Below, piece after piece: positions 3,915 to 61,655 of a stretch of 64,000 bases of DNA. Every line of letters begins with the position of its first letter. The first letter of the stretch is position 1. The stretch is from IMG/VR virus record IMGVR_UViG_2609459822_000013, positions 12,652 through 76,651 of that record; one strand, 5' to 3'. The DNA is from a virus. Its lineage: Duplodnaviria; Heunggongvirae; Uroviricota; Caudoviricetes. Made by a program: the position numbers and the translations under genes. Under the pieces are notes generated by a model. The model was not told where the DNA came from. It did no database searches and worked only from the letters and a program-made list of their open reading frames with translations.

Positions 3915-4264
3915 AGTTTACAAAATGGCATCATTGTGTGATGCGGATCACATAATGGCGCTTTTTGTCTTGTTTGGGGGTATCCATTTTGTATACTTCA
4001 AGCAAACAAAATGCTCTTTAAAAATCCGGCAGCGCTGAAATGCGTAGAAATCACCTGAAAAGGAGAGAGCATTATGTCTTTTGATGATTACCAATGGCAT
4101 GACGACTATGAACGAGAAAGCGTCATGCGTGCAATGTGCAATGTATGCAGCACGAAGAAAGGAGGCTGTAACGAGTGCAACGAATGCTTAGAACATTGGC
4201 TAAGGGCCGGACACGCCGAAAGGCTGAACGAAACAGAGAATCAAAAATAATCGGGGTGGTTTTT

Positions 4265-11551: not shown

Positions 11552-12043
11552 ATGATTAGCCAATCGCTGAAAAATAAGATTATTGCGGCGGCGGCTGGTG
11601 GGGCGATCGCTATTGCGGGGATGATGATAAAAGATCTTGAAGGCGTTGAGTATAAGCCGTACAGAGATGTCATCGGTGTTTACACGATATGTTATGGACA
11701 CGTCGGAAAAGACATCATGCTTGGGAAGACTTACACGCAATCAGAATGCGATGCTTTGTTAAATAAAGATCTACACAAGACCGCAAAAGCGATTGACCCA
11801 TATATCAAAGTCGAAATATCAGATTTTACCCGCGCTGCACTTTATTCCTTCGCCTATAACGTAGGCGCAACCAACTTCAAAACATCAACCTTATTAAAAC
11901 TACTCAATGACGGCAAGAAATCAGAAGCGTGCGCACAGCTTAAGCGCTGGGTATACGCTGGCGGTAAGAAGTGGCAAGGCCTGGTAAACCGCCGCGAGGT
12001 TGAATATGCCGTTTGCGAATGGGGGGAAACGTGGACAAGGTGA
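11552..12043 (+). CDS. SAR endolysin (phage lysozyme)
   Basis: N-terminal Gly/Ala-rich signal-anchor ([14 protein letters not shown]) and lysozyme E...D...T catalytic triad; resembles P21 R / RrrD. Confidence 0.85.
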
Positions 12044-12501
12044 AGGCGTTAATTATCGCCGCTGTTGTTTGCATTATTGCCGGACTGACCGCCGTAACAT
12101 GTTATTACCAGGGTGAGGCGGCAAGGTTACAGGAAGAAGTCACGGTAACGAAAGGCGCACTGAAAACGGCAAGTAACACTATTCAGCAGATGAAGGAGCG
12201 AAACGCCGAACTGTCAAAACTTGATAAGAGGTATCACGATGAGATTAAAGCTATCAGATCTGACATTGCCGATCTGCGCACTGGCATTGATAACGGTACT
12301 ATCCGGTTGCGCGTCAACGCAATACCCGTGCGAGTGTCCGACCCCGCCGCGACCGCCAGCCGCATTGATGGAGCCACCTGCGAGCTTGATGCCACTGCTA
12401 GACAATCTTATCTATCCCTCAGAGAACAACTAAAAGAGAAAGACGCACAGATCACTGGCCTACAGGACTACATCAAAACTCAGTGTTTACGCAAAGAATA
12501 G
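12019..12501 (+). CDS. Rz-like i-spanin
   Basis: N-terminal transmembrane segment plus coiled-coil periplasmic domain; Rz1 embedded in +1 frame; exact start uncertain (ATG 12019 or GTG 12031). Confidence 0.6.
12239..12433 (+). CDS. Rz1-like o-spanin lipoprotein
   Basis: Embedded within Rz; lipobox LSGC followed by a proline-rich segment. Confidence 0.7.
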   Translation: MRLKLSDLTLPICALALITVLSGCASTQYPCECPTPPRPPAALMEPPASLMPLLDNLIYPSENN

Positions 12502-23057: not shown

Positions 23058-23534
23058 ATGTCTCAGACTTGCGAAAAAGGCACGTTTACAGGCCGTGACG
23101 TTGCTGTATTCTTCGCTATCGCTTGTCCAAATGCGAAGCCGGAAACTGGAGCGTACAAAGCGTTAGGCATGATGCGTGGTAAAACACTTTCCGTTGAATG
23201 GGAAACCGCTGACGCCACCGCCGATAAATCAGCCGATTACACGAAAGAATCAATGGTTACTTACAAATCCGTTTCTTTCTCCGGCGACGGTGTGTCCCGC
23301 ACTGAAGAAATCCATAATCAGAAAGCGCTGAAACGCCACGTAATTACGCCAGGTGAAACCACCGGATCACAACCTTATGTATGGCTGAAGATCGTTTCTC
23401 CTGTAGACGTAACTGAAGGCCCATTCCTTTGCACTTCCTTTAAAGAAGAAGATCCGCATGATGATGTTTCCACCTGGTCTATTGAGTGCGAAAGCGCTGG
23501 CAAGGTAACGGTAGGCGACGTTCCGCCAGCATAA
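23058..23534 (+). CDS. Major tail tube protein (putative)
   Basis: 158 aa; strong RBS; position before tail chaperone and tape measure. Confidence 0.45.
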   Translation: MSQTCEKGTFTGRDVAVFFAIACPNAKPETGAYKALGMMRGKTLSVEWETADATADKSADYTKESMVTYKSVSFSGDGVSRTEEIHNQKALKRHVITPGETTGSQPYVWLKIVSPVDVTEGPFLCTSFKEEDPHDDVSTWSIECESAGKVTVGDVPPA

Positions 23535-23589
23535 CAGCCAATATTAACAATCGGGGCCATTTGGCCCCTTTTCTTTTAAGGTGAATACT

Positions 23590-24267
23590 ATGATCCATGT
23601 TCGTACAGGGCAATTTGCGGCTGTGGTGAACGGTAAGCGCTATGAGTTTAATCCTTGCTTTGCTGCGATGGCTAAAATCGGCAACGATAGTGAGCTTGTC
23701 GAATATTTCGCACTTATCCACGGCAGCAAATACCCTTCACGATTACCTACAGATCCAGACCTCCGCAATCGCATTATGGCACGGTGTTATGGTGAGATAG
23801 TGCAAACGTCAATGCGCATCCTGAAATGTTGCTCAGACGACGAAACAGGCCAGTTATTGGGCAAATGTAGGTTTACTCCTTCTGGTAAATTGAGACTAAA
23901 ACCCGGACTGATGCCTACAAGTGATGTTATCACGCTGGCGCAACATTGCATGTACCACGGTTTAATTGGTGACGGGCCAGAAGAAGACGCCGGAGAGATC
24001 CGGGAAGGGGAATATAAGCCGACTTTTAACGTGCTGGAATTCGTTTATTCTGCCGTAGCTCACCTGGGATTATCTGAATCAGAAGCGTGGAATATGACAA
24101 TGACCGGATATAGGGCCGCTGTACGCGCTAAAACGCCGCCAGAAGCAAGAAACAAACAAAAACGCCCAAATGTATTGCTGGATAAAAAGGCTTATGACGA
24201 TGGAATGAATGGTGCTATGGAGATACTAAAAAGAATGAAAAATCGCGAGCAAGAAAAAGCCCGGTAG
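23590..24267 (+). CDS. Tail assembly chaperone (putative)
   Basis: ATG with AAGGTGA upstream; lies between tail tube and tape measure genes. Confidence 0.3.
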   Translation: MIHVRTGQFAAVVNGKRYEFNPCFAAMAKIGNDSELVEYFALIHGSKYPSRLPTDPDLRNRIMARCYGEIVQTSMRILKCCSDDETGQLLGKCRFTPSGKLRLKPGLMPTSDVITLAQHCMYHGLIGDGPEEDAGEIREGEYKPTFNVLEFVYSAVAHLGLSESEAWNMTMTGYRAAVRAKTPPEARNKQKRPNVLLDKKAYDDGMNGAMEILKRMKNREQEKAR

Positions 24268-24285
24268 ATCCGGGCGTTTTTGTTA
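24259..24285. terminator. Bidirectional rho-independent terminator
   Basis: gcccgg-tagat-ccgggc hairpin flanked by A-run and T-run, between converging genes. Confidence 0.45.
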
Positions 24286-24292
24286 AGTTCGC

Positions 24293-24613
24293 TTATGCTA
24301 TTTTTTCGTAAAGCACATTCATCTGGGTGCGAATCACTGTTAATATATTGATTGCTGCGTTCTTATTAATGCGTTTATTCGCTACTATTTTTGTTTTCCC
24401 ATCAATAACAACCAGATCTGCGTGCAATACATGGTTGAAGTTGACAATGTAATAATACTGTTTATCGCCAACATGTTGAACATATGCACCATTTAGATTT
24501 CCTTTATACCCACAATCACGCTCTGCGACACCGAAGTCAAATTCGCGGTTCATCTTGCGATTATATGCTACTTGTTTATGTTCCCATTTTCTCATCCATT
24601 CATCGCGTTTCAT
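24293..24613 (-). CDS. Antisense moron, hypothetical 106-aa protein
   Basis: Opposite strand to the tail operon; AAGGGTGA RBS; follows the lipoprotein gene by 9 nt. Confidence 0.4.
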   Translation of the reverse strand: MKRDEWMRKWEHKQVAYNRKMNREFDFGVAERDCGYKGNLNGAYVQHVGDKQYYYIVNFNHVLHADLVVIDGKTKIVANKRINKNAAINILTVIRTQMNVLYEKIA

Positions 24614-24622
24614 GTTTCACCC

Positions 24623-25282
24623 TTAATTCCAGTTGCAAGCGTTTTTCACTTTGTCGATGTGGTTATAAAGACCATCAATGTTAAACACTGCTTTCTCAAT
24701 GTCGCCAGCTTCCGGCACTGCTTCAATGATAAATTGTTTTTCGTTAACCAGTTTTTTAATCATTGGGATGGCTTTTTTGCCGTTCCATAATCCAAGAGCT
24801 TTATAGTTAGTTGACCGACTCCATTCAGTAGCTACAGCTTTGTGATCGCCGATCCGGTAGTTAATATAAGTAGTGTCCCCAGCGTCAGTTACATGGTTTG
24901 ACCATGCTACGAACATTTTTGTTTTATTACCCTGGCAAGCTATTGTTAATACAGGTTTGTTTTCATCCCGTGCTTTCAGTGTAGGGAAAGCATCAAGACT
25001 TCCGCTGAAATGTTCTGCTTTCACGAAAAGGAACACGTTTTTTGTGTCCTGCATATCATCTTTTCTTTCGACCACAAGCCACTGTTTACCAGCTTTTTCT
25101 TTTGCTAACTGTGCCTCATATGCGGCTTGTTTTGCTTGTTGTTCTGCAAGCCATTTAGCATTTTTCTCTGCTAATGCTTGTTGCTCTTGATTGGTCACTA
25201 TAGGCGCTTTTTCATTATCCTCATTGCAACCAACCAGACCCAATACCGCCGCAATCATTGCCACTTTTGCTAACCGTTTCAT
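24623..25282 (-). CDS. Antisense moron, predicted lipoprotein
   Basis: 219 aa; signal peptide with lipobox (VLGLVGC); inserted between tail chaperone and tape measure. Confidence 0.5.
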   Translation of the reverse strand: MKRLAKVAMIAAVLGLVGCNEDNEKAPIVTNQEQQALAEKNAKWLAEQQAKQAAYEAQLAKEKAGKQWLVVERKDDMQDTKNVFLFVKAEHFSGSLDAFPTLKARDENKPVLTIACQGNKTKMFVAWSNHVTDAGDTTYINYRIGDHKAVATEWSRSTNYKALGLWNGKKAIPMIKKLVNEKQFIIEAVPEAGDIEKAVFNIDGLYNHIDKVKNACNWN

Positions 25283-25409
25283 AACCCACCACGCTAACTT
25301 GATTTACTGACCATTCCCTTTAGCTTCCTTATACAAAATGGAGTCGTTGAAGTAAAGCCATTTTGTATAAAATAGATACACAGATCACATTTTTGCATGA
25401 GGTTAAATC

Positions 25410-27746
25410 ATGGATACCAGTGTAGGTACAATTTATTACGAAGTTGATGCGAAAACTAGTCAACTTCTCGTTGCACAACGACAGGCAGACCAGGCCTTTG
25501 GGCGTATAGAGCGCGGCGCAAAACAGGCTGACCGCCAGGTAAACACCCTGAAAACATCCATCAAGGCACTGACCAGGGTTATCCATTTGCTAATTGCTGC
25601 GGAGGCCGTGCGTCAATTCATGGATATGGCGGAGCAAGCAAAAATGCTTCGCGTAAAAATCAAAATGCTTACGGGCGATGCGGAGTCCGCCGGACGGGTT
25701 TTTGATGGCCTAAAAGCAATATCAAAAGAAACAGGCCAAAGCATGAAGGATACCGGGGATCTGTGGCAAGGCTTAGCTATCTCACTGAAGAACACGTCCG
25801 CCACTGAAGGGCAATTGCTTAACCTGGTAGGTACGATTCAGAAAATGGGGGCGTTGGGCGGCGCGTCAGCTGAGCAGATGTCAAACTCAATGCGTCAATT
25901 CCGTCAGTCTATCGACGGTGGCGTGTTGCGTGCTGAAGAATTCAACAGCCTGTTAGAAAACACCCCGACCATCGTACAGACAATGGCACGCCAGATGGGG
26001 TTATCAATGGGCCAATTCCGCGCCGAAATGCTGGACGGTAAGATCACGGCAGAAAGGATGGTTAACGCAATCCAGGCGGCTACGCAGGAAACAAACGAGA
26101 AGTTTGCGCAGTTGCCGCGCACATCCGGCATGGCCCTGAATGAGCTTAAAGTCGAGGTTATGGGACTTGTTGAGCAATTGGATGATCTTTTCGGTGTATC
26201 CGATACGGTTGTTGCTGGTATCGATCTTGTAACGAAAGGTGTTAAGGCTTTAGGTGAAGGCGCTGATTTCGCTAAAACCTGCTTTAACACCCTGAAGACG
26301 GCTGGTGGCGAATTCATCGACATGTTTGAAGATGTCAGAATCAAGGCTGGCGAGGTAGCCGAGAAGATCATCGCAATGGTGACGCCAATCAAGGCACTAA
26401 TGGATGCCTACAAATGGATGAAGGAGGTCGTAGGAGAGCAAACCGACGAATATAACAGCAACTACGAGAAGAAATACGGTAAGACCGTTGGCAAGGTCAT
26501 GCAACTACAGGATGATCTGACCGCAGCAATCCAGGCTACAGAAGAAGCAAGGAAAAATGAACAGAATGCCGCCAATGACGGAGCGATTACCGGATTCGAA
26601 AAGCCAGTAGACAAACCGAAAAAACAGAAAAAAGAGAAGAAATCTGAAGCTGATCGTCTTGGCGATAAAGGTATAAGCGTTTCTGACCAGTACAACAAAG
26701 ACGCCGCCGCTATGCGCAAAGCGTTAGAGAGCGGCAAGGCCATTGATGCTGCATTCGCCCAGGGTAAAATCACTCTCCTTGAGTACCGCGCCGCGCAAAA
26801 AGGGATAGGTAAGGAACTAAAGGAAGAATTAGCACAAATTCCGGTAGAGGAATTGCGCGACAAATGGGAGCAAATAGTAAGCCCGATGGATCAGCTAAAG
26901 GGCGAAGTAGACCCTATTCAGCAGGTTCAAAATGAATGGGCCGTCCGTAAGCAAATGCTTATCGACCTGGGCGTGACGGAAGCGCAACAGAAACAGGAAC
27001 TGTTAGCCTATGAGCAACAGATCCGCGATCTGAAGTGGGAGCAATGGCAGGCGCAAAGCGACACAAACAGCCTTATCGGTGATTGCGTTAATGGCCTTAA
27101 AGGTGGTATGAGCAATGCACTTGTTGGCCTGTTAAATGGTACTCAATCATTGAGTGATGTTTTTGCTAACTTAGGCAGCAATATCCTCGGGAATATCGGT
27201 AACAGGCTTTCAGACATAGCTGCAAACTGGATAGCAGATCAGATCATGATGGAAACGCAAAGCAAAGCGACTCAGGCAAGTACCACGGCGGGCGCGGTAG
27301 CGGCGCAAGGCCAGATTGCTGCGGCGGCGGCCCCGGCGGCGGCGGCAACAGCGGCGTCAACTGGCGGCGCATGGGCGGCGGCTGGTTCTGCGGCACTCAC
27401 TGCGATCATGTCGCTGGCTACGTCAATTTTTGGCGGCGGTCGCTTTAATGGTGGTAGCGTCATTGGTGGCAATATGTACCGTGTAGGGGAACACAACAGG
27501 CCGGAGCTATTCCAGACATCTAACGGAAATCAATATATGATCCCTGGCGAGAATGGCAGGGTTATTCCTGGTCGTGACATTGGCGGTGGCATTAGTATGC
27601 CTGTCAATATCAACATTCAGACCACAAACGGATTTAGCGACGAGGACAGCCGCAGACTTGAGCAGACAATGGAACGTGTAGCAATGAAAATGATAACAAG
27701 GGAATCACAACGACCAGGCGGAATATTGCAACCTCGCCGCAAATAA
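25410..27746 (+). CDS. Tail tape measure protein
   Basis: 778 aa; long helical, Ala/Gly-rich, typical tape-measure composition; position upstream of gpM/L/K/I/J. Confidence 0.7.
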   Translation: MDTSVGTIYYEVDAKTSQLLVAQRQADQAFGRIERGAKQADRQVNTLKTSIKALTRVIHLLIAAEAVRQFMDMAEQAKMLRVKIKMLTGDAESAGRVFDGLKAISKETGQSMKDTGDLWQGLAISLKNTSATEGQLLNLVGTIQKMGALGGASAEQMSNSMRQFRQSIDGGVLRAEEFNSLLENTPTIVQTMARQMGLSMGQFRAEMLDGKITAERMVNAIQAATQETNEKFAQLPRTSGMALNELKVEVMGLVEQLDDLFGVSDTVVAGIDLVTKGVKALGEGADFAKTCFNTLKTAGGEFIDMFEDVRIKAGEVAEKIIAMVTPIKALMDAYKWMKEVVGEQTDEYNSNYEKKYGKTVGKVMQLQDDLTAAIQATEEARKNEQNAANDGAITGFEKPVDKPKKQKKEKKSEADRLGDKGISVSDQYNKDAAAMRKALESGKAIDAAFAQGKITLLEYRAAQKGIGKELKEELAQIPVEELRDKWEQIVSPMDQLKGEVDPIQQVQNEWAVRKQMLIDLGVTEAQQKQELLAYEQQIRDLKWEQWQAQSDTNSLIGDCVNGLKGGMSNALVGLLNGTQSLSDVFANLGSNILGNIGNRLSDIAANWIADQIMMETQSKATQASTTAGAVAAQGQIAAAAAPAAAATAASTGGAWAAAGSAALTAIMSLATSIFGGGRFNGGSVIGGNMYRVGEHNRPELFQTSNGNQYMIPGENGRVIPGRDIGGGISMPVNINIQTTNGFSDEDSRRLEQTMERVAMKMITRESQRPGGILQPRRK

Positions 27747-27777: not shown

Positions 27778-27957
27778 TTATTCAATTTCATCATTTTTAA
27801 ATTCGCCGTTTGCATAAAGCTGTAATGCGCTTATCAGTTCGTCAGCTTGCTTTTTGTCTATTACAATCATCTCGCAGTCGCTAACGTTCCATAATCTTCC
27901 ATCATCTTCAACACTAAGATCAATCCTTCTGCATTCTTCAGTCTCATGAATAATCAT
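27778..27957 (-). CDS. Antisense small ORF, 59-aa acidic protein
   Basis: Hand-translated, not in track; GAAGG RBS; DGR-containing sequence loosely similar to the 62-aa moron at 30114-30302. Confidence 0.3.
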   Translation of the reverse strand: MIIHETEECRRIDLSVEDDGRLWNVSDCEMIVIDKKQADELISALQLYANGEFKNDEIE

Positions 27958-28285
27958 TATAAACCTTCATTATGTTATTAATTTTAGTGAATAAATTTAC
28001 TCAAATCTTGTATACCCTCTTTCAATTTTCCCTCCGTGTACACTTCTGGCAAATACCGCGTCAGTATACCTAAAAAATGGGCATGTATATGTATCACCTT
28101 TACTATCCATCCATTTTAGCACCCATGCCATACGTTTTACATTGCTTTTATTTGCCGGGTTTTTCATTTTATTTTCCTCCGCAAATTACAATCTTTCGTT
28201 TCTTGCTATATAGCTGCGAGAAAACATTACCAACCAAATATTCCAGATCTCCCTCCAGGTGAATTTATCGTCCTCCATACCCACC

Positions 28286-28540
28286 TCACTTATGGCAACC
28301 GCGAACGCCAGACAATTCATTGAATTTATGGTGTTCAACAATCACCCACTCCTTCAGATCCTGGCTATAGACTCGCCAGTCTAAATTGGCGCGGAAGGCG
28401 TAGCCGTAACCGTCTTTCAATTTTTTGGGTGACGCATTCTTGTTTAAAAACGCGTTCAAAAGTTCCTTTGCTTTTTTGACTGCATGCCCCGGCGCGTTTT
28501 TCTGTGCTTTCAGATTTTTGTCAATCGCTACCAGTTTCAT
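28286..28540 (-). CDS. RelE/YafQ-superfamily toxin-like protein (putative)
   Basis: 84 aa; C-terminal FRANLDWRVY...VIVEHH resembles the RelE/YafQ/HigB core. Confidence 0.4.
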   Translation of the reverse strand: MKLVAIDKNLKAQKNAPGHAVKKAKELLNAFLNKNASPKKLKDGYGYAFRANLDWRVYSQDLKEWVIVEHHKFNELSGVRGCHK

Positions 28541-28557
28541 AACTCACCCCATCATCC

Positions 28558-28713
28558 TTAGTTAAGTGCCTTCAGGAAGAAGTCCCGGTATTCATCTTCT
28601 TTTGCATTCATCATGAATTGACCGTATTTGAATGCGTCGTCGAAACCCTTAACGATTGCTATTTCCACTTGTTCGAATGCGTTGTTTAGCATTACCACTA
28701 CATAGCGTTTCAT
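28558..28713 (-). CDS. Small 51-aa protein upstream of the toxin-like gene (candidate antitoxin)
   Basis: Internal ATG (MKRYVVV) with GAAGGAGG RBS; 17 nt upstream of the toxin-like ORF. Confidence 0.35.
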   Translation of the reverse strand: MKRYVVVMLNNAFEQVEIAIVKGFDDAFKYGQFMMNAKEDEYRDFFLKALN

Positions 28714-28880
28714 TTTGGGCCTCCTTCGTTGGTACTGCTTTTCTTCTTGCTTTCTGTATACATCTTGTTGCGAACTATGTGAAGCCATTTTGTAAACTAG
28801 CTATAATCATTGTACTGAAGATCTCATTTTCGCGTAGAAGCGCGTAAAGATATATACAAAATGTAACTTATGGGGGTTTT

Positions 28881-29527: not shown

Positions 29528-29776
29528 TCATAACGCCCCCTTCAAATATGTCAATCCCTTATCAGTGACGAATGAGTGATTAACCTGGTTTTCATCCGTC
29601 ATGATGATAAATAACTTTTCCTGTAGGTATTTCGCTTTAGGGTACAGCGTTAAGCAGACCTGGTACAGTATCCCGCGCTCAATCAGCAAATCAATAAATT
29701 CGTGTTCATGATAACCGATGAGGCGGGCGGCCTGTTTCAACGTGTACACATAATCACCGTGATTGCGCCGCCCCAT
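29528..29776 (-). CDS. Antisense moron, 82-aa protein with HTH-like segment
   Basis: Third gene of a minus-strand three-gene cluster; LKQAARLIGYHEHEFIDLLIERGIL looks helix-turn-helix-like. Confidence 0.35.
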   Translation of the reverse strand: MGRRNHGDYVYTLKQAARLIGYHEHEFIDLLIERGILYQVCLTLYPKAKYLQEKLFIIMTDENQVNHSFVTDKGLTYLKGAL

Positions 29777-29785
29777 GTTGCCGCC

Positions 29786-30133
29786 TTATTTATCGAATGC
29801 TGAAAGGTTATCGATACAGAAATCTTTCGCAGCTTTTTCGTATTCGCGTTTTGCTTCTGGATCGTCAGCCGGGAAACCTTTTGCGTGTATTTCACCAGGG
29901 CAAGACTGATCCATAGAGTCTGCAAAATTAACATTGAAGTTAACATTAATATCTTTCGGGTTCATATCTTCCACCTCATCAACTATCTGTACCGGATTAG
30001 CAGTATATTTCACTGGATGGCCTAAACTACATTCAAGAATCCTGCCTTCTTCCAGGGCTACTTCTTCGCTATCAAATAATCCGAAACACTCCTTGCTACC
30101 ACTTAACCACACATCAAGACTGTATTTTTTCAT
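29786..30133 (-). CDS. Antisense moron, 115-aa acidic protein
   Basis: Internal ATG (MKKYSLDVW) of track ORF; overlaps the upstream gene by 20 nt. Confidence 0.35.
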   Translation of the reverse strand: MKKYSLDVWLSGSKECFGLFDSEEVALEEGRILECSLGHPVKYTANPVQIVDEVEDMNPKDINVNFNVNFADSMDQSCPGEIHAKGFPADDPEAKREYEKAAKDFCIDNLSAFDK

Positions 30134-30302
30134 TTTTGTTAGCCTCATATTTGACAGGTTCGATCTGGTATCCCAAAAGGCGGTCATCCTCAGCAAGTAA
30201 AAGCGCGTCAACCAATGCTTCCCCCTCGTCGTCATACAGGGCGATAACCTTTTCCCTACCGTCTGTCATGAATACCGTCAACTTCCATAGCTTTTCAGTC
30301 AT
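30114..30302 (-). CDS. Antisense moron, 62-aa acidic protein
   Basis: Internal ATG (MTEKLWK) with GGAGGTG RBS; first gene of the cluster. Confidence 0.35.
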   Translation of the reverse strand: MTEKLWKLTVFMTDGREKVIALYDDEGEALVDALLLAEDDRLLGYQIEPVKYEANKNEKIQS

Positions 30303-30430
30303 AACGCACCTCCGCGCCATTTTGTTAACTTCCCCTTCGTTTGAGTAAAATATACATATTGTAAAACAACGATCAATCCATTTTGGTATGATTTAGCGTG
30401 ACGCAGATCACAAAATGACAAGGTGAGAAA

Positions 30431-37365: not shown

Positions 37366-37611
37366 TTATTTTTTACACCCATCATTTACACCAGAAAAAT
37401 GGATAGGTAAATTACATTCACTGTCAATAATTTTACCTTGTAGTTGTTTTTCTTTCCATGAGTCAGTATTGAAATAACTCGAACGTTGGTTATCAAGGCC
37501 AGTATCACCATATTGAGCAGTGCCAGCATCACTCTTATCTGTCGAATTTACAGAAGCAAAAGCACCAAAAGACAGAGCTGATAAGATGCAAGCAACAATT
37601 AGTTTTTTCAT
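37366..37611 (-). CDS. Antisense moron, small secreted protein with signal peptide
   Basis: Internal ATG (MKKLIVACILSALSFGAFA) with AAGGTG RBS; two cysteines in mature part; between J and tail fiber. Confidence 0.4.
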   Translation of the reverse strand: MKKLIVACILSALSFGAFASVNSTDKSDAGTAQYGDTGLDNQRSSYFNTDSWKEKQLQGKIIDSECNLPIHFSGVNDGCKK

Positions 37612-37808
37612 TGTATTCACCTTACTGTTTGTTTTACTGTCATTTGTTGTTCGTGATGATCCACCCATCCGATGAGCAAATCACCGCAGAAGCTATCATT
37701 TCGTATGTTGATATAGATCAAAAAATACATTATGCATAAGCTCAAAGTGTAACGCGGATTACAAAATGGTAGAATTATTCCGTTAATTAACATAATGGAG
37801 TCATTGCA

Positions 37809-44291: not shown

Positions 44292-45527
44292 CTACGATAA
44301 CCGCGCATTCAACATGGCTACCTGTTCGTCGTTCATGTCATCAATCCACATACCGTAAATTTCATACACCATCTGCGCAGTTTCATGCCCCATCTGGCTG
44401 GCTATAAACGCCGGGTTCGCTCCTGCCGTCAACAGCCAGCAGGCAAAAGTATGCCGCGTATGGTACGGATTACGGCGGCGAATACCAGCACGTTTTACTG
44501 CTGCATTCCATCTCGCACCCAAACTGCTTACCGAGTAATAAGGTTTCTGTTTTCCGTTACACACTCTGGGCATGAAAACAAAATGCAGTTTTTGCTTTTC
44601 GGTTCTGCCGTACTCCCGATGATAAAAAGTGATTTCGCTTTTGCGATGATGCCCGGTCAGTTTGTATTGCTCCTTCAGTGCTTCAAGAGCAGGCTGCAGT
44701 AGTGTTACTGTCCGGATCCCGGCATTTGTTTTTGGGGGACCGAACATATCAAGTATCGTCAGGTTTCTTCTGACATTCACTATTCCCTTTTCGAGATCCA
44801 CATCCTCCCACGCCAGAGCTGCCAGTTCCCCGTGACGAAGTCCTGAGTAAACGGCAAATTTCCACAAGTTCTGGCTCTGTCCTTTTTCACTTTCCATTAA
44901 TGCATTGAATTCTGTTTTAGATAACGGATCAGGCTTTATTCTGTTTCGCTGTAATTTTTTTACTCCTTCAAATGGTTTGGTTGATATAAATCCCGACTGA
45001 TACGCAAAACGCAACAGCGAACAGAGCAGGGCGATATAGTTATCAACTGTGCGCACGGTTCTTCCTTTTTTGTTGGATCTTGGATTATCCAGGTAAAGCG
45101 TTTCTCCATGCAGCAGTTCATTCCGGTAGATTAAGATATCGCTATAACGAATATGTGATATCGGGGTACTTTCACAAATTATTATTCTGAGTGTTTTTAA
45201 TTGTGATTTCGTTTTCTTCATTGTGTTTGTTGTTAACTCTGTCTCTTTAATTTTTGTCCAGATATCACAAAGTTCTCCGAACGTTTTTATGACTCTCGTT
45301 GTCACCATTTTTGCCCCAGTGCTGGACTGGGGAAAACGTCTTAAATACTCAAATTCACCGGAGTTTATTTCATGAACTATCAGCGATCTTAAATTTCCGG
45401 CCTTTTTAATATTACTGTTTGTAATCTCCCAGCCTTTTAATGTTTCCCGACATCGTTTTCCTCGAAACATGAACCAGATGCGAATGTATCTACCTCTAAT
45501 CTCGACACCTGTTGGTAATTTAGACAT
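44292..45527 (-). CDS. intR: Tyrosine integrase (Rac-type)
   Basis: 411 aa; C-terminal R...HxxR...Y catalytic pattern (HTRHTFA, YEIYGMW); adjacent to ttcA. Confidence 0.9.
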   Translation of the reverse strand: MSKLPTGVEIRGRYIRIWFMFRGKRCRETLKGWEITNSNIKKAGNLRSLIVHEINSGEFEYLRRFPQSSTGAKMVTTRVIKTFGELCDIWTKIKETELTTNTMKKTKSQLKTLRIIICESTPISHIRYSDILIYRNELLHGETLYLDNPRSNKKGRTVRTVDNYIALLCSLLRFAYQSGFISTKPFEGVKKLQRNRIKPDPLSKTEFNALMESEKGQSQNLWKFAVYSGLRHGELAALAWEDVDLEKGIVNVRRNLTILDMFGPPKTNAGIRTVTLLQPALEALKEQYKLTGHHRKSEITFYHREYGRTEKQKLHFVFMPRVCNGKQKPYYSVSSLGARWNAAVKRAGIRRRNPYHTRHTFACWLLTAGANPAFIASQMGHETAQMVYEIYGMWIDDMNDEQVAMLNARLS

Positions 45528-46275: not shown

Positions 46276-47085
46276 TTATTCCTCTGAATTATCGATTACA
46301 CTGTATTCCCCGGTTAATACAGAGGAATCTGCAGGATCGATTGTCAGTGGTTCCTTTTCATCCATTGATACTGCACGCTGGATCTCAATTGATACGGGCA
46401 GATATTTGAACAGGCGACGAATAGCTGTTTTCTTTGCCATTTCTTCCCAGTGAGTTACCCACGGCCCGTTATTACCAGCTTTACTCTGGCTGCGCACCAG
46501 CTCAATCTGTCTGCGCGTCATAACTTCAAACTGAGTACCTCCGTCTTTCAGTCTTGCGACAGCATAGACGTGGGTAACCGGGGCATCTTCGTTTTCTCCT
46601 GGGCGGTGTATTAACTTTTCATCAAGGCCAAATTCGAAATTAAATTCGTCACCTTCACGGACAACACGGGCTGACAGGCTGGCGATTTGACCTGAACGGC
46701 GAGCCAGATCAATCATGCCGCGATAGCCAATGATTAGCTGAACGTTTTTTTTACCGCTCTTTTCGTTTTTATTACCAAAAGGCAGTAAATATGCATGACC
46801 GAGGGCGCTACCTGGCTCAAGTCCGAGCTGTGAACACTGTACGATTGCACTGACAAAACTCATAGTGTCACAGTTTCCTAACGCCGGAACTTTACGAATT
46901 TCTGTGGTGGCGATACGGATCATACGTTCAGCCGTCATATGGCGTGGAAGAGCTGCTGCCAGTTGCTCTTTCATTGATGGCTGGTTAATAAAACTAATCA
47001 CGTCGTTATTTTTAATTGCTGCTGGTGCACGGTTTTCCTGAGTTTTTTGCAGATCGGCTTTTGCGATTGGTGGTTGCTTAGTCAT
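46276..47085 (-). CDS. recT: Recombinase RecT (single-strand annealing protein)
   Basis: Internal ATG (MTKQPPIAK) gives 269 aa; matches RecT as I recall it. Confidence 0.85.
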
Positions 47086-49729
47086 TTGCATATTCCTTAG
47101 CCCAGCGGGGCAGTGATAACGTCTTAATAGCTGGCCATTCATCGGTATTGAGGCAGTCAGCCAGGGTTCGCAGATTGCGGTGATATTCCAGCTGACCTGC
47201 TAGTTTTGCTTCTTCGCCCATCATGAAAATTTCAACCGGATAACGTCCGCATTCAATAGTTGTGCTGGCAACCAGAAAAACGAAAGTTGGCTGCACTCCA
47301 AACTGTGCTTCATAACCGTCACTGTAGAATGCATCCTGAACGTGATAGCGGTAGTCGTAATAAGCGGTTTTGAATCGTTGAATATCCGCCGTAGTTTTCA
47401 CGTCCATGATCCAGTGAAATTCAGGGATAATTTTGTCCGGACGGCACCGACACAAAATTCCTGTTTCAGGATCTTCCCAGTAAATTGATGATTCAGCGTG
47501 TCCGGCGCTTTCAACAAGCCATTGCCCCAGCGGCAAAGCCATAACGCTTTGATACATCAGTTCAATTTTCCGGCCTTCTTCCGCAGTGATAACCATTTTT
47601 CCTGTGCTTGCGCATTCCATCAGAAACGCTTTCTCTTCTTCTTTTCCGGCGTTTGTACGGCGGTTAAATTCAGGTGCTACGATAAAGCGGTTACTGAATT
47701 CTTCCGGTTCAAGTACCCGGCAGTGGAAAGCGGTTCCTAAATCGAGCGTTTTTGTCTTTGTGGTGTCCACGGGGGCATTTTTACGCCACAAATACAGTGC
47801 CGGAGTATCAGCAATGTCATCGAGCTGAGACTTACTGACACCGGGACCTGCGTGGTAATTCTCATTCGAAATTCCGTAATAAATACCTGGCTCTATGTCT
47901 TCTACGATTACGGGATCTGCGACTTCGCCAGTTTCATCACTGCAATCGCGATGCGGATCGCTGCCAGCATTCTCATTGTGCGGATGTTCAGCGCCTTCCA
48001 TTTCCTCCGGATCATTTTCCTTAGCTTCAACCTGATTCTCTTCAGCGAATTTTTCCTGGTTTGTTGCGTCCCCCACCCCCCCACCACGGCCAGGGCATTT
48101 ACCCCCGCCAGTCTGGCCGCAGGCATTGAAGGCTATTTCCGGTTCCTGTTGCACTACTGGCTCAGGTTGTTTCATATCCGGGCTGGTTTTTTCCGTTTCT
48201 GGCTGGTTCTGGTACACAGAATCGCGAGTCTGGATCCCCTTAACCCATTTCGGATCGTTCGGGTCGCTAATTCCGTCAACAAATTCACCACGTGATGCAG
48301 CAAGCAATTTATCGGCATCGACAGGATTTTTTGATGGAATGTTTTTCCGAGCTTCATGGAGTTCTGCCCGCAGTTCCTGATATTTCGCATCAACAGAATT
48401 TACCTGTGACTGAGCATCCAGCGGCTGCGTGTCCTGATGATGTTTAGTTGCGTCCGGTTCCATTGTTTCAGCCTCTCCCTGTTCATCTGCCGTTGTTCCA
48501 GATGGTTGCAGTTTTTCTTCATCATCCTGTTTTCCTTCTTCTGTTACTCGCTGCGGCATCGGGGCAGAGGAGCGACCGCAGGCAATATCCACGATTTCCG
48601 GATCAGGGTTGGCATGATCGGTTTCAGTCAGTACTTTGTTCAGATATGCAGTGACGTGAGCGGGGATGACCTCGATCCCAATTGGTGCTTCTTTCACGGA
48701 CGCAACCACGATGGCGCGGGAATAATCCAGCCCGCCAGGCATGGTGATGAATTTGTCGCGGAAAACAGAAAAGGGCGGTTTATTTTCAGCGATAATTTCC
48801 TCAATGCGTTTAGCGTGTGCCGGATGAAGGTTATAGATGTCCACGTCCATTGAACGGGCCAGTACGCCAGTGGCTATATCGCGCGCCAGTGACGTCAGAT
48901 CGTGGACGAAACCTTCGCCGCGATCTGTGAGGTTCCCGCCGCCAGCATTAGCACCGGAAGCCGTGCGAGTGATGCGTGAAACACGATTCCCTTTTCGCCA
49001 TTCTTTTGTCAGAAGACCGCGATCAATGTGTTCGGTATCCAGCCAGGCTGAAATGAAATTCTTAAATTCATAGGGCTGATGTTTTTTAGTGATAGAGAAA
49101 ACTGCCTTAATTGCATCAGTCAGGCGGAGCAGGGCGGCATTATCCAGAGTTGTCGGTTCTGCCATGCCGCGTATGGCCAACAGCAGATTCTGGACATAGC
49201 TGTTTTCCTGATCCATCTCAAGAGCAGTAATGTGTTCGCGTTGTTCTCGGGTGGCATGATGCAGGTATTTCCGATCCCCGGCCGCATACGTAAAAATGTG
49301 CAGAAGACGCTGTGTGAACCGCAAAGTGGCTACAGAGACTTCGCAATCCTGGCAATCCTCGTGGGCGTCTGCCTGCGCGTTTTCTTCCTGGCCTCCCGCC
49401 AGTTCGTTGGTTTCTTGAGCATTATCCTGGTGGTGAACGTCGTCTGGCGCTGCTCCCGGTTTTAGTTCCCATGTCATGGAGTCTTTGCTGAGTTGATAGC
49501 GTTCACTCCAGGTAAAATCGATCTCACCTTCAGGGGGAAGGTCATTAACGACAGGAAAATTTGTGGCAACAGCTTTAAAATAGTTGCTCAGTTTTTTACC
49601 TGACTTAACGATCAGGTAGTCCAGAGTGGCACAGGTCGATTCAAAATCGTCGCTTGCCCACAGGACGACGTCAGGTTCACCGGATGATTTTTTCGCTTTC
49701 CGTAACAGGAAGAGTGGTTTTGTGCTCAT
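47078..49729 (-). CDS. recE: Exodeoxyribonuclease VIII (RecE)
   Basis: 883-aa ORF overlapping recT start; C-terminal nuclease region; start uncertain. Confidence 0.8.
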
Positions 49730-49830
49730 TGTTTTTTAACCTCAACTCAGATTAAAATTCGTTTTGTTCAGTGAATGATCTTGCCGGATACACACTGTTC
49801 ATAGCCTGCGCCATACGCAGGCTATTTCTT

Positions 49831-50106
49831 TCAGATTTCACCTTTTAATTTCATTGCAATTAGAGTTGCCAGAAATTCGGCTTTTTTTTCTGCGGGCAGA
49901 TTCTTTCCGGTATGCACCAGGCACATTTTTTTGACACCTTCGTGAAGTGTTTTAACGTTGCCTGATGGACCGTCGATATCAACCACAGTGAATGGGGTTT
50001 CTTTATTTTCTGTTTTAATCACGTAGCCAATACGCTTTCCTTCCAGATTAACCTCGTGAACAATGTCATCAGTAGTTACAACAGTGGCTTCATAACTGGT
50101 AATCAT
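49831..50106 (-). CDS. racC: RacC
   Basis: Internal ATG (MITSYEATVV) gives 91 aa. Confidence 0.7.
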   Translation of the reverse strand: MITSYEATVVTTDDIVHEVNLEGKRIGYVIKTENKETPFTVVDIDGPSGNVKTLHEGVKKMCLVHTGKNLPAEKKAEFLATLIAMKLKGEI

Positions 50107-50180
50107 GTTTTTCTCCTTAATTAAGGTTGAGCGAATCCCTGCCATTGCTGGCATAAATTCAGTTTCGCATAGTCAGTTAA

Positions 50181-50351
50181 TTAAAGTTCGTGTGCCATCT
50201 GGTCTTTTTCGGCACAACTTTCACTACAATATTTTTTCATTTCCGTCGTTTGGATAACTCCACGCATGAAATGAAGTGGTCTTTTGATACTTTTGCTTTC
50301 TTCAATTTCTTTATTGCAAAGGTGGTAAGCACATTTTATTTTCTTAGTCAT
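50181..50351 (-). CDS. ydaE: YdaE-like small cysteine-rich protein
   Basis: Hand-translated 56 aa ([12 protein letters not shown]...), not in track; start overlaps kilR stop. Confidence 0.55.
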   Translation of the reverse strand: MTKKIKCAYHLCNKEIEESKSIKRPLHFMRGVIQTTEMKKYCSESCAEKDQMAHEL

Positions 50352-50572
50352 CACCATGACTCCGCCTTTACAGGTAAACCATTACGACCGAGGAAGACTT
50401 TAATCATGCAGTCAGTAATGCATGTTTTTGTGGTCAGGTTACGAATATAAAGTTTTCGCTTTTTAATATTGTTTGCCGAGGCAATATATGTCCGGCCTTC
50501 ATGAAGAACATAGTCACCAGGAGTCACACACTGACGTGGTATTTCATCAGTTCCGAAGTGATGTGCAATCAT
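50351..50572 (-). CDS. kilR: Cell-division inhibitor KilR
   Basis: Internal ATG ([12 protein letters not shown]) gives 73 aa. Confidence 0.75.
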
Positions 50573-50992
50573 AATTATCTCCATTTTTACAAATGAACTT
50601 TGTTGATGCGGTGCCTGGTGCCTCCAGGTGACTGCAACCAGTTAACAATTACAGTCGGCTTTCCCACCCAAACCAATAAGGACTAACATGACTTTTAACT
50701 GTGCCGCGTGCGCTTAGCCGCATTCACCGCATCACAAAATTCACTTTAAAAAGGGCGGGCATCAGTCGAACTTCAAGAAAAAACTGATGCCGCCAAGACT
50801 ACACATAGCAGTGTTGTTATCCACAACCGGAGGCGCACTCCCACCATTTAAATTTAACAGACAAGACCGACTCTTTATGGATATCGGAAATGCGCCTTCG
50901 TGTTGTGCCCGGTTTTATTTCACCACCTCCGGGCTTTGGTGGTTTCTGCTATACCCCTACAGCGAGAATATTGAATTAATCCAAATAATGGA

Positions 50993-51145
50993 TTAGCAAG
51001 TATTTCTGGCAAGCCAGCGACGTGCGCCTGTTTCTGTTTTAAATGTTTTGCTTTTGGTATACGTCATAGCAGTGAACGTTCCATCTTGGTTAGGGAACAC
51101 GCCGCACACCATGGATTCGTTATTGCCGAGGTCGATTTTTTGCAT
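50993..51145 (-). CDS. ydaF: YdaF-like small protein
   Basis: Hand-translated 50 aa (MQKIDLGNNESMVCGVFPNQDGTFTAM...), not in track. Confidence 0.5.
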   Translation of the reverse strand: MQKIDLGNNESMVCGVFPNQDGTFTAMTYTKSKTFKTETGARRWLARNTC

Positions 51146-51155
51146 TTTTCGCACC

Positions 51156-51290
51156 TCACATCTTGTTGTTGCGGATAGAGGCTTCTGCTTGCCAGAGATC
51201 CCAGTCGTTGCTACGTAAAGCCTGCACAGCCTGGCTGTAAGTGATACCGCAACAATCCATCAAATACTGAACTACTTCGTAATGCACCAT
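51156..51290 (-). CDS. ydaG: YdaG-like small protein
   Basis: Hand-translated 44 aa (MVHYEVVQYLMDCCGITYSQAVQALRSNDWDLWQAEASIRNNKM), not in track. Confidence 0.5.
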   Translation of the reverse strand: MVHYEVVQYLMDCCGITYSQAVQALRSNDWDLWQAEASIRNNKM

Positions 51291-51459
51291 CTTATCTCTC
51301 CCCTTAACGCCGGGTGGCGGAACTAACTGCTGCACTGCAAAATTTGAATCCCGCCGTCATGTTCATACGCCTCGGGCTGGCTACTTAACCCCTGACCACT
51401 GCCTGGTAACTCGAAGTATTGCCTGGCGTTCTGTGGGGCGGGGTGGGTGGTATGCTGGA

Positions 51460-51488
51460 ACTATAGGTAATGCCTAATTGATTGTCAA
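51460..51488 (-). promoter_or_regulatory. Leftward sigma70 promoter (pL-like) with RacR operator half-sites
   Basis: Minus-strand TTGACA, 17-nt spacer, TATAGT; GCCTAAT/ATTAGGC operator-like motifs in and near the spacer. Confidence 0.45.
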
Positions 51489-51598
51489 TAGGCTATGCCT
51501 AATGTTTTAAGCGTAACCTAATAGGTGATGGCGACTGGAGAAAGTGATGGGGGGGTTAAATAACGGAATCCAGGAGTTTTCCGTCAGACCATATAAGT

Positions 51599-52075
51599 TT
51601 AAGTTCCAGTTTTTGTGATGTTCTGGCTTTTCCGTTCAGATTCTAGAGCTTTCAGATACTTACCCACTTTCATTTCCATCGCTGCTATGTAGGCGCGAAC
51701 ATCGTGGTCAACCCAATCTGGTTCTGTAGCATTTCCAGATAACAGGAAAGCTACAATCGCTCTTATTTCATCAGAGGCTGCTTGATAAAGGTTGTTTATA
51801 TCTAAAAGTTCACTTTTTGTATCTGGATTGGTGGGGGTTGGTATGGGGTATTCGTTAAGCCCCCAATGCTCTGGACCAACAACATCAGCAAAGAAACGCC
51901 ATAATTCTGGAAGTTTATCTTTACTTATGGAGCCTTTCTTAATCCAGTCATAGATTGATGGTGGTTGGACTTTGAAGTGGCGTGCGACCTCCGCCTTTGA
52001 TTTGACGGATCCCGATGCGATTTTTTTGTTAATGGCCTGCTCTATCGCTCGGCCTAAGTCTTTACCACTAAGCAT
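51599..52075 (-). CDS. racR: Prophage repressor RacR
   Basis: 158 aa; N-terminal HTH; divergent from ydaS across an operator-rich intergenic region. Confidence 0.8.
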   Translation of the reverse strand: MLSGKDLGRAIEQAINKKIASGSVKSKAEVARHFKVQPPSIYDWIKKGSISKDKLPELWRFFADVVGPEHWGLNEYPIPTPTNPDTKSELLDINNLYQAASDEIRAIVAFLLSGNATEPDWVDHDVRAYIAAMEMKVGKYLKALESERKSQNITKTGT

Positions 52076-52097
52076 TGCTTAATATTCTCCTATGCTC

Positions 52098-52172
52098 ATT
52101 GCATTAGGCAATCCCTACTCTCATTGTATTAGGCATAGCCTATTGACATTTGTATTAGGCGTCGCCTAATAT
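52098..52172 (+). promoter_or_regulatory. racR-ydaS intergenic operator/promoter region (pR-like)
   Basis: Three ATTAGGC-containing inverted repeats (one perfect: ATTAGGCGTCGCCTAAT); TTGACA, 18 nt, TAATAT promoter overlapping them. Confidence 0.5.
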
Positions 52173-52198
52173 CTCTGTGTGTTTTTGGAGTTCATTCG

Positions 52199-52495
52199 AT
52201 GAAAAAAGAGAACTATTCATTCAAGCAAGCTTGTGCTGTTGTCGGTGGGCAAACAGCAATGGCTAGGCTTTTAGGTGTATCACCTCCAAGCGTAAATCAA
52301 TGGATCAAAGGGGTACGTCAATTGCCTGCCGAGAGATGTCCAGCAATTGAACGTGCAACAAGAGGTGAGGTGCTGTGCGAAGAACTTCGTCCTGATATTG
52401 ACTGGTCATATTTACGACGTTCGGCATGTTGTTCGCAGAATATGTCAGTGAAGCAACTAAATGACAGTAACAAATCCTCATTTGATCATACCTGA
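52199..52495 (+). CDS. ydaS: Cro-like HTH protein YdaS
   Basis: 98 aa; HTH (QTAMARLLGVSPPSVNQWIKG); first gene rightward of the repressor. Confidence 0.7.
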   Translation: MKKENYSFKQACAVVGGQTAMARLLGVSPPSVNQWIKGVRQLPAERCPAIERATRGEVLCEELRPDIDWSYLRRSACCSQNMSVKQLNDSNKSSFDHT

Positions 52496-52517
52496 AACAT
52501 CAAGAGGCAAATGATTC

Positions 52518-52940
52518 ATGAAAATCAAGCATGAGCACATCGAATCGGTGTTGTTTGCCCTGGCAGCCGAAAAAGGGCAGGCATGGGTAGCCAATGCAAT
52601 TACTGAAGAATATCTGCGCCAGGGGGGCGGCGAATTGCCCCTGGTTCCAGGCAAGGACTGGAACAATCAGCAGAATATCTATCACCGTTGGTTGAAAGGT
52701 GAAACGAATGCGCAAAGGGAAAAAATTCAGAAGCTGATCCCAGCAATTCTGGCAATCCTTCCGCGCGAGCTGCGTCACCGACTCTGCATCTTCGATACCC
52801 TGGAACGCCGTGCATTACTGGCGGCGCAGGAAGCGTTAAGTACGGCAATTGATGCGCATGATGATGCAGTCCAAGCCGTTTACCGGAAAGCGCATTTCAG
52901 CGGCGGCGGGTCTTCCGACGATTCTGTCATTGTTCATTAA
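52518..52940 (+). CDS. ydaT: YdaT (toxic cII-position protein)
   Basis: 140-aa ORF downstream of ydaS. Confidence 0.65.
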   Translation: MKIKHEHIESVLFALAAEKGQAWVANAITEEYLRQGGGELPLVPGKDWNNQQNIYHRWLKGETNAQREKIQKLIPAILAILPRELRHRLCIFDTLERRALLAAQEALSTAIDAHDDAVQAVYRKAHFSGGGSSDDSVIVH

Positions 52941-52952
52941 GCAAAAGTTTTC

Positions 52953-53810: not shown

Positions 53811-53816
53811 CTGTCC

Positions 53817-54563: not shown

Positions 54564-54585
54564 TTTTTACCGGGAGGAAATTTTA

Positions 54586-55347: not shown

Positions 55348-55362
55348 TTGCCGGAGGCGCTT

Positions 55363-55794: not shown

Positions 55795-55987
55795 ATAGAA
55801 CGATGAAGGATGGAAGCTACATATTCTCGGTACTAAGATTTATTTTTCTGACACAAAATGACCATTTGGCGTTACATAATCCCAAAAAAACGTATCAAAA
55901 ATCTCAAAATGCGTTACGATTAGAGAGTATTTTGATTCTGCGTGCTCATTTTTTGATTGCTGTGGCTTTTTGTTGTGGGAGTGTTGA

Positions 55988-59381: not shown

Positions 59382-59395
59382 CAACTATATAAATC

Positions 59396-59420
59396 AAACC
59401 CGCTGTAGCGGGTTTGATTT
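59396..59420 (+). terminator. Rho-independent terminator after the protease gene
   Basis: aaacccgc-tgta-gcgggttt hairpin followed by a T-rich run. Confidence 0.55.
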
Positions 59421-61223: not shown

Positions 61224-61308
61224 TTTTTTACGCATAAACTGCTTCAATTTTGCTACGCTTCGCAAAGCTGTATCGCGAGGCGAATCAAGCGCAATTAAAC
61301 TTTAATAG

Positions 61309-61576: not shown

Positions 61577-61652
<76 letters not shown>

Positions 61653-61655
61653 TAT

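Follow-up and report, generated by a model that had tools for sequence, protein, structure and literature searches.

A moron that carries an envelope lipoprotein is a known pattern in prophages, and tested examples come from the mEpimmI phages, in which small lipoproteins encoded downstream of J give superinfection exclusion (gp81 of mEp021 and gp116 of mEp010; PMC11893012). Two other described systems bear on the locus analysed here. In Vibrio cholerae, VasI (VCA0118) of its type VI secretion system (T6SS) is dispensable for secretion of Hcp and VgrG-1 but needed to kill amoebae and Escherichia coli (PMC3166118), and a review of 2026 still lists TagO/VasI as a protein of unknown function (PMC13584744). 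For SDIC4B, encoded in a defence island of Serratia, the authors report a VasI-like fold but no BLAST match to VasI; by itself it protects E. coli 10-200-fold against several coliphages (bioRxiv 10.1101/2024.01.28.577318). The present locus is a two-gene moron lying antisense within the tail-gene operon of an mEp021-like (mEpimmI) prophage of E. coli, in a window of 64,000 nucleotides (nt) from IMG/VR record IMGVR_UViG_2609459822_000013; coordinates below refer to this window unless a locus label (L001 etc.) is given. Its first gene encodes a predicted lipoprotein of 219 amino acids (aa) with a VasI domain, which we tentatively read, by analogy and with a probability of about 0.4, as an envelope-level superinfection-exclusion or anti-phage factor that would interfere with genome entry. 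The VasI family itself is already known (Pfam, PHROGs, RefSeq names); modestly new are (i), the prophage VasI-domain proteins as a set distinct from T6SS VasI, (ii), their recurrence, in unrelated temperate phages, at sites where genes are usually expressed in the lysogen, and (iii), their place in a cassette-exchange slot of mEpimmI phages whose promoter, inverted repeat and signal-peptide joint are conserved.

A predicted VasI-domain lipoprotein on the antisense strand

The first-pass annotation had proposed two open reading frames (ORFs) opposite to the late operon, and the ORF list bears out both to the nucleotide:

25282..24623, minus strand: VasI-domain lipoprotein gene, 219 aa (ORF list)
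25282-25226, minus strand: signal peptide and lipobox of the 219-aa protein (aa 1-19)
24613..24293, minus strand: second moron gene, 106 aa (ORF list)

Both genes are under purifying selection. Compared with four homologues of 62-96% nucleotide identity, the 219-aa gene has a ratio of non-synonymous to synonymous substitution (dN/dS) of 0.13-0.25; that of the 106-aa gene is 0.26. The unit also stands out in composition: its GC content is 0.38-0.41 against 0.46-0.52 on both sides, and its GC content at third codon positions is 0.36 against 0.44-0.59 in the neighbouring late genes. Together with a Pfam match above the gathering threshold (see below), the dN/dS values and the distinct GC argue that these are true genes and not chance antisense ORFs. 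An Rfam scan of 23400-25600 gave no match.

The N-terminus of the 219-aa protein, MKRLAKVAMIAAVLGLVGC, has three Lys/Arg residues in its n-region, a hydrophobic core and a PROSITE-type lipobox (LVGC) ending at Cys19, so that all the elements of the lipoprotein predicted in the first-pass annotation are present; the motif G-L-[VI]-G-C is moreover invariant across 13 homologues. The same annotation had taken the protein to be of unknown family, which does not hold. Residues 55-218 align to positions 25-184 of the 184-position Pfam profile VasI (PF11319, formerly DUF3121) with 60.7 bits against a gathering threshold of 26.5 (E=1.9e-16), the whole protein matches phrog_1848 (E=1.7e-57), its sole PHROG match, and RefSeq names it "T6SS-associated protein TagO". 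Seven residues (W68, C116, T121, R143, F200, C216 and W218) are invariant in 28 diverse VasI members, this protein included, and it retains the VasI core W, C-x-x-N-x-T (N119-x-T121), Y-R, ALGLW, F, G and the C-terminal C-x-W. From this conservation the two invariant cysteines of the domain probably form a periplasmic disulfide. In an AlphaFold2 model of moderate confidence (mean predicted local distance difference test, pLDDT, 69) a disordered stretch is followed by a helix (aa 31-63) that would act as a stalk and then by a beta-sandwich; a phmmer search against PDB sequences returned no match.

The family is large and its members differ at the N-terminus. Of 1.84 billion representatives searched with a profile, 1,870 clusters match with E<=1e-3; 585 of these reach E<=1e-10, and only about five are close relatives. 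In the majority of the family a standard Sec signal peptide precedes a C...RL-x-CYD motif, whereas the clade of the 219-aa protein has instead a lipobox, a Q/A/K/E-rich stretch and a 7-residue insert. Compared with VasI/TagO proper (VCA0118; PF11319; TIGR03360), the 219-aa protein shares the domain by sequence, all invariant residues including the two cysteines, the C-x-W and export to the envelope, but it carries a lipobox and a helical stalk in place of the Sec signal peptide and RL-x-CYD motif, and its gene, which is never part of a T6SS cluster, belongs to the tail module of a prophage.

Does the protein then work for, or against, a T6SS? It is not a component of the type VI secretion machine. 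Against TIGR03360, the T6SS VasI/TagO equivalog, it scores 47.7 bits, far below the cutoff of 124.2, where VasI of the E. coli EDL933 T6SS-2 (encoded between tssH and tssA) reaches 257.4 and five other phage or prophage copies reach 26-76; thus "TagO" is a domain-level label here and not evidence of a T6SS role. A looser connection, in which the protein would bring about a T6SS-related lysogenic conversion, either modulating the host T6SS-2 or shielding the periplasm of the lysogen from T6SS attack in an immunity- or decoy-like manner, is fairly unlikely. It draws on the membership in Pfam VasI, on BLASTP similarity to EDL933 VasI (the C-terminal 113 residues are 33% identical, E=2e-11) and on the killing role of the V. 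cholerae protein, which is separable from Hcp/VgrG secretion. The periplasm is also the site where many T6SS effectors and immunity proteins act. What speaks against it, besides the low equivalog score and the missing N-terminal C-x(n)-RL-x-CYD motif of most family members, is that no T6SS gene lies close to the phage or prophage VasI-domain gene at any locus examined, and that Brucella and Pasteurella, hosts of related prophage copies, to our knowledge lack a T6SS. The names in current use are likely a source of false T6SS calls in genome surveys: in the RefSeq annotation of 16 E. coli records and of the phage records NC_049343 and NC_031264, T6SS-type names are given to prophage copies, and one record reads "type IV secretion protein".

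An exchangeable cassette slot in mEpimmI phages

The surroundings of the two genes, and the signals that would govern their expression, are as follows:

23058-23534: tail tube gene, upstream of the DUF6246 gene
23581-24267, plus strand: left flank, a DUF6246/phrog_791 gene at the place in the late operon where a tail-assembly chaperone would be expected (Pfam, PHROGs)
25410-27746, plus strand: right flank, tape measure protein gene (PF20155, E=1.2e-48; phrog_1538, E=7.9e-154)
24259..24275, both strands: G+C-rich hairpin (GCCCGG-N5-CCGGGC) that resembles a bidirectional intrinsic terminator, each strand having T-runs (sequence)
25285..25290, minus strand: GGTGGG, similar to a ribosome-binding site (RBS), upstream of the ATG at 25282 (sequence)
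25328..25356, minus strand: predicted sigma-70-type promoter of the moron, read by eye, a 9/12 consensus match within the conserved block
25321-25375 (also L001 4400-4450 and L003 3220-3270): conserved promoter block of about 50 bp
25329-25341 and 25358-25370: arms of a perfect 13-bp inverted repeat, TTATACAAAATGG / CCATTTTGTATAA, with 16 nt between them

The site had been described as lying between a tail chaperone gene and the tape measure gene. The tape measure gene is firmly identified; the DUF6246 gene sits where a tail-assembly chaperone is expected and is a putative chaperone by position only. These flanks are 80-85% identical to those of mEp021, MagusPhagus and other mEpimmI coliphages, and the match is interrupted over the cassette. 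In its place mEp021 and MagusPhagus have a different antisense gene (138 and 137 aa), whose product starts with a Sec signal peptide (MKRL...AFNANA followed by ND), and another relative, L011, has a third one:

L001 3812-4228 (mEp021 gp63): alternative first gene of the slot, 138 aa
L002 3781-4194: alternative first gene, 137 aa
L011 3482-3964: alternative first gene, 160 aa

The three alternative products are unrelated proteins without family matches, and each has a Sec signal peptide (that of L011 begins MKRLAKVALIAGF). All first products of the slot, the 219-aa protein included, are exported and begin MKRLxK; since this common start precedes unrelated cargo, the exchange boundary appears to fall inside the signal-peptide coding region.

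The DNA of the cassette matches 22 of 5,426 complete E. coli genomes, and in the 16 E. coli genome records that hold the VasI-like gene it always stands between the DUF6246 and tape measure genes. A search of IMG/VR with a narrow alignment found 17 contigs with the gene (mostly 52-57 kb, five at 26-41 kb), 16 of them with the same slot, the same orientation and recognisable flanks. What follows the gene varies: in these 17 contigs the partner is a 124-aa lipoprotein nine times and the 106-aa protein six times, one contig has no partner (its VasI-like protein is 203 aa long) and one terminates right after the VasI-like gene. The 124-aa partner, whose gene is absent from the window, is a predicted lipoprotein beginning MKKIIKAVLIGVMALALTGC (lipobox LTGC; phrog_18614) with weak, sub-threshold similarity to BamE/DUF7738, and is unrelated to the 106-aa protein:

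L003 2132-2506: 124-aa lipoprotein gene
L004 1548-1922: 124-aa lipoprotein gene
L011 4345-4719: 124-aa lipoprotein gene

All three kinds of gene are combined in L011, in the order 160-aa gene, 106-aa homologue (72% identical) and 124-aa lipoprotein gene. In L015, a more distantly related phage, the DUF6246 gene directly abuts the tape measure gene and the VasI-like gene is found elsewhere, from which it follows that the slot can be empty. The varying partners and the swapped first genes therefore describe a modular slot of one to three genes, the first product of which is always exported. In some relatives, moreover, a conserved leader ORF of 29 aa (MKNVNYRPNEHERYADFIEEMLKSLKNKN) intervenes between promoter block and cargo gene; it is absent from the window:

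L005 2593-2852: stretch with the leader ORF
L001 4229-4484: stretch with the leader ORF
L023/L026/L033/L034 5899-5985: leader ORF

This modularity bears on the second gene. Its product is basic (isoelectric point 9.6), no signal peptide was found in it, and it has no family in Pfam, PHROGs, NCBIfam or PADLOC; only three clusters of homologues exist, all from E. coli. A model with two helices, a four-stranded sheet and a further helix (pLDDT 65.6) has no convincing structural neighbour, tblastn against phages gave chance-level hits only (E=0.3), a PDB profile search reached E~0.4 at best, and there is no homology to the 124-aa partner or to a 103-aa ORF of L015. One could imagine that the two genes form an obligate system, a periplasmic sensor or effector with a cytoplasmic partner in the manner of a toxin-antitoxin or abortive-infection pair. 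With 9 nt between the genes and an RBS-like GGGTGA overlapping the stop codon of the 219-aa gene, co-transcription is likely, and the pair recurs in the six IMG/VR contigs and in E. coli M1/5 (NZ_CP053296), which is 99.3% identical at this locus. Such a pairing is nevertheless highly improbable: the 219-aa gene more often precedes the unrelated 124-aa lipoprotein (9/17) and once has no partner, the 106-aa gene is also found behind the unrelated 160-aa exported-protein gene, and the two products are predicted in different compartments. The 106-aa gene is an optional orphan module of the slot, and its product would act as a separate, optional module in the cytoplasm.

That the unit is a moron is well supported by its sequence context: it has its own predicted promoter, genes and a terminator-like hairpin, a deviating GC content, and a site that is empty or differently filled in relatives. 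The lipoprotein-containing antisense moron suggested by the first-pass annotation is in this respect sustained, by the low GC, the hairpin, the conserved promoter block and the variability of the site. Like the classical morons of the HK97/lambda type (Bor, Lom), it is an insert of deviating GC, presumably autonomous, with a predicted promoter and terminator, between genes that are adjacent in a relative; it differs in that the mEpimmI slot is a reusable cassette site with a conserved 5' end (promoter and signal peptide) and exchangeable exported cargo of up to three genes. A conserved promoter/signal-peptide joint followed by swappable exported cargo makes a tidy natural case of cassette exchange in a tail operon.

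The signals upstream of the slot are shared across cargoes. A block of about 50 bp, CTATTTTATACAAAATGGCTTTACTTCAACGACTCCATTTTGTATAAAGAAGC, is conserved in 7/7 phages compared although their cargo differs; it resembles a promoter/operator common to them, or else a joint at which cassettes are exchanged by recombination. Within it the predicted promoter has a -35 box TTTACT (25356-25351), a 17-bp spacer and a -10 box TATAAG (25333-25328; TATAAA in relatives). The 13-bp inverted repeat, present throughout the seven aligned phages, encloses the -35 box and overlaps the -10 box; an operator is one possible role and a recombination joint, again, another. The 9-mer core of the repeat, ACAAAATGG, occurs 10 times in the window (at 3920, 3984, 21254, 25333, 25358, 28785, 30317, 31151, 37761 and 46184) against 1.15 +/- 1.10 expected, a number reached in 0/100 shuffles, while the half-site 15-mer with up to 3 mismatches is weakly enriched (9 against 4.15 expected; 4/100 shuffles reach 9). 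Copies of ACAAAATGG or of its 8-base core ACAAAATG are seen in the intergenic stretches beside every antisense accessory unit of the tail module (25283-25409, 28789-28880, 30236-30430 and 37669-37808), three further copies lie in an early-region intergenic stretch (3915-4174), and paired copies are kept in related phages. At the other end of the unit, the terminator-like hairpin lies 18 nt past the stop of the 106-aa gene and overlaps the stop of the DUF6246 gene, and in mEp021 a terminator is annotated at the equivalent position.

Relatives in other temperate phages and a possible block of genome entry

Relatives of the VasI-domain gene at 27-35% identity are found by tblastn in 24 phage records, which represent seven kinds of phage. 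Brucella phage BiPBO1 has the gene immediately downstream of its repressor gene and in the same orientation, Labrenzia phage vB_LagS-V1 has it beside cI, within the cI region, P2-like phages have it at the prophage end, adjoining a zinc-ribbon gene, and in Pasteurella phage Pmp14 it has tail chaperone genes on one side and the tape measure gene on the other. The three chromosomal relatives that were looked up are all within prophages: in Brucella pseudogrignonensis directly downstream, and on the same strand, of the S24 repressor that heads its operon, in Ensifer beside an S24 repressor and near the integrase, and in Pasteurella multocida between the Phage_tail_T and tape measure genes. Across unrelated temperate phages the VasI-domain gene recurs at places where accessory genes active in the lysogen are commonly found; the textbook case is lambda rexAB, which lie downstream of cI. 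In the P. multocida prophage, which is lambda-like and unrelated to the present one, the chaperone-tape measure interval (L016 5572-10999) is likewise an island of accessory genes; besides the VasI-domain gene it encodes a 652-aa protein combining a GHKL ATPase with a PD-(D/E)xK-like nuclease (with weak PADLOC matches to REase and Cas4), a KilA-N protein and a DUF2513 protein.

The genomic positions, the slot products that are always exported and the precedent of SDIC4B point, indirectly, to a protective envelope role, and in this way lend some support to the exclusion or virulence function put forward in the first-pass annotation. We hypothesize that the moron would be transcribed in the lysogen from its own promoter and that the 219-aa protein would be exported by Sec and, judging from the lipobox, lipidated at Cys19. 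With Asn at +2 the default would be anchoring in the inner leaflet of the outer membrane, from where a helix of about 33 residues (aa 31-63), within a tether of about 45 residues counted from Cys19, would present the VasI/DUF3121 beta-sandwich in the periplasm. Acting there as a protein-binding module, the domain might hinder entry of a superinfecting genome by binding either a component of the host that serves entry or the tail-tip or ejection proteins of the arriving phage. The residue at +2 is N, D, R, G or E among close homologues, which suggests that placing the domain in the periplasm matters more than which membrane anchors it.

A number of points weigh against an entry block. The same variation at +2 makes the membrane of residence uncertain, and the structural model on which the stalk is based is of moderate confidence. 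The sole characterised relative, V. cholerae VasI, promotes T6SS killing and not defence (PMC3166118). PADLOC has no match for the 219-aa, 106-aa or alternative cargo proteins, and the 219-aa protein has no sequence link to the tested exclusion lipoprotein gp81 of mEp021 (Lpp021; phrog_4281), and Cor, Llp and Bor were absent from the matches of the Pfam and PHROG scans. Its relationship to SDIC4B is likewise not one of sequence (hhalign probability 0.1%). Finally, a consensus promoter scan of the 127-bp upstream region listed no minus-strand promoter; the scan rule demands a T at the last -10 position and hence does not list TATAAG, and it is conservation alone that supports the predicted promoter.

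How does the protein compare with the exclusion proteins already described? The first-pass annotation had named Cor, Llp and Bor as precedents and noted that the protein is far larger than Cor; it shows no relationship to them, phrog_1848 being its only PHROG match and neither Pfam Lambda_Bor nor PADLOC matching it. With Cor, Llp and the mEpimmI Lpp proteins (gp81) it shares its nature as a prophage lipoprotein encoded by an antisense or accessory gene of the tail region. Those proteins, in contrast, are of some 60-80 aa, are encoded downstream of J and co-vary with receptor use, whereas this one has 219 aa, another slot, another fold and PHROG, and no sequence similarity to them. The mEpimmI study distinguishes four types of lipoprotein, among which the 219-aa protein may or may not figure; its main text has no mention of TagO, type VI or type-B/-D lipoproteins (PMC11893012). 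Behind J, the prophage of the window has no gp81 homologue; the position (37366-37611, minus strand) is taken by an unrelated 81-aa Sec-exported protein (MKKLIVACILSALSFGAFA followed by SVN) with a weak match to phrog_2243. A second VasI-carrying prophage, in E. coli 2017C-4173W12, has the same 81-aa gene after J and again no gp81 homologue; two prophages are too few to claim that the VasI-like gene stands in for the post-J exclusion lipoprotein.

SDIC4B is the other comparison. It too is an exported envelope protein, with a VasI-like fold according to its authors, found outside T6SS loci on mobile or defence DNA, and one gene is sufficient for the protection reported. Its sequence (preprint supplement) has a Sec signal peptide rather than a lipobox, is 157 aa long and has no Pfam VasI match, and its gene is associated with BrxR rather than with a phage tail module. 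Membership of the 219-aa protein in SDIC4 was considered and rejected on the hhalign result. SDIC4B would thus be a functional analogue at the level of the fold only, and the fold claim itself rests on a preprint.

Alternatively, the protein could be a host-interaction or fitness factor that alters adhesion, invasion, serum resistance or stress resistance, after the manner of Bor or Bartonella IalB, with no effect on phages. Prophage morons often encode factors of this kind, and a Bor homologue is found elsewhere in the window; a homologue from a P2-like phage gives a weak Pfam IalB match (E=5e-4), and V. cholerae VasI has been discussed as a possible adhesin (PMC3166118). We regard this as unlikely, because default sorting would have the protein face the periplasm and not the cell surface, and because the phages in which the family is spread have soil, marine and animal bacteria as hosts, a range that favours a role independent of the host. 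IalB (PDB 3dtd; PF06776) is 9% identical to the 219-aa protein, for which Pfam IalB gives no match; it is chromosomal in alpha-proteobacteria and linked to erythrocyte invasion, and its own mechanism is unclear.

The site next to the tape measure gene, repeated in the Pasteurella phage, might instead suggest an accessory of the lytic cycle, for instance one that serves the tail, the tape measure or lysis on the periplasmic side or stops progeny from re-adsorbing to lysing cells, and the conserved inverted repeat over the promoter could, as an operator, tie expression to the phage programme. The unit is, however, antisense to the late operon, its homologue lies in the immunity region of other phages, and in the viable phages mEp021 and MagusPhagus it is absent or replaced by unrelated cargo, hence it is not a core function; a lytic role is very doubtful.

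A broader proposal, which we consider speculative and improbable, is that VasI/DUF3121 is a general periplasmic module recognising tail-like machines that cross the envelope, and that its prophage copies, here lipid-anchored on a helical stalk, form a widespread and hitherto unrecognised class of envelope defence or exclusion. If so, these copies would intercept the incoming tail tips of phages, their tape-measure channels or the spikes of a T6SS, the VasI of a T6SS would be this module put to use for an outgoing spike, and the mEpimmI chaperone-tape measure slot would be a dedicated exchange site with a shared promoter, operator and signal-peptide joint. The narrower entry block has consequences of its own. 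It would add a new fold to the few envelope-level exclusion proteins, and phrog_1848 and the phage members of the VasI family (1,870 representative clusters family-wide) would for the first time have a function; the RefSeq name "T6SS-associated protein TagO" would then be misleading for prophage copies, which touches surveys of T6SS and virulence genes. Should the gene turn out to have no phage-related phenotype, it would be one more accessory prophage gene.

Other features of the window

Two further antisense units lie in the tail module. The first (27778-28788, minus strand), directly after the tape measure gene, has four small ORFs, two of which are:

28286-28540, minus strand: ParE-like toxin (PF24732, 29.7 bits)
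28558-28788, minus strand: 76-aa ORF ahead of the ParE-like toxin (phrog_29810), which could be its antitoxin

The second (29528-30235, minus strand) encodes an 82-aa antirepressor-like protein with a KilAC/ANT domain (29528-29776) and a 149-aa protein of phrog_38567. On the plus strand, a 64-aa lipoprotein ORF (12239-12433; lipobox LSGC) is nested in a 162-aa ORF (12013-12501); by its sequence this corresponds to the usual Rz1-in-Rz spanin arrangement, in the predicted lysis cassette of the mEpimmI-like prophage.

The mEpimmI-like prophage ends near 40.2 kb. Beyond it (40342 onward) are host genes that, from reading the translations, we take to be zntB, dbpA and ttcA, and after these a second prophage, Rac-like or lambdoid, with an integrase confirmed by Pfam (44292-45527). 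The same reading gives, within 46276-64000, a presumed RecT-like gene (46276-47142) and a presumed Rz1-like lipoprotein (63434-63616). This second prophage also carries a full Bor homologue (63707-64000; PF06291, 104 bits).

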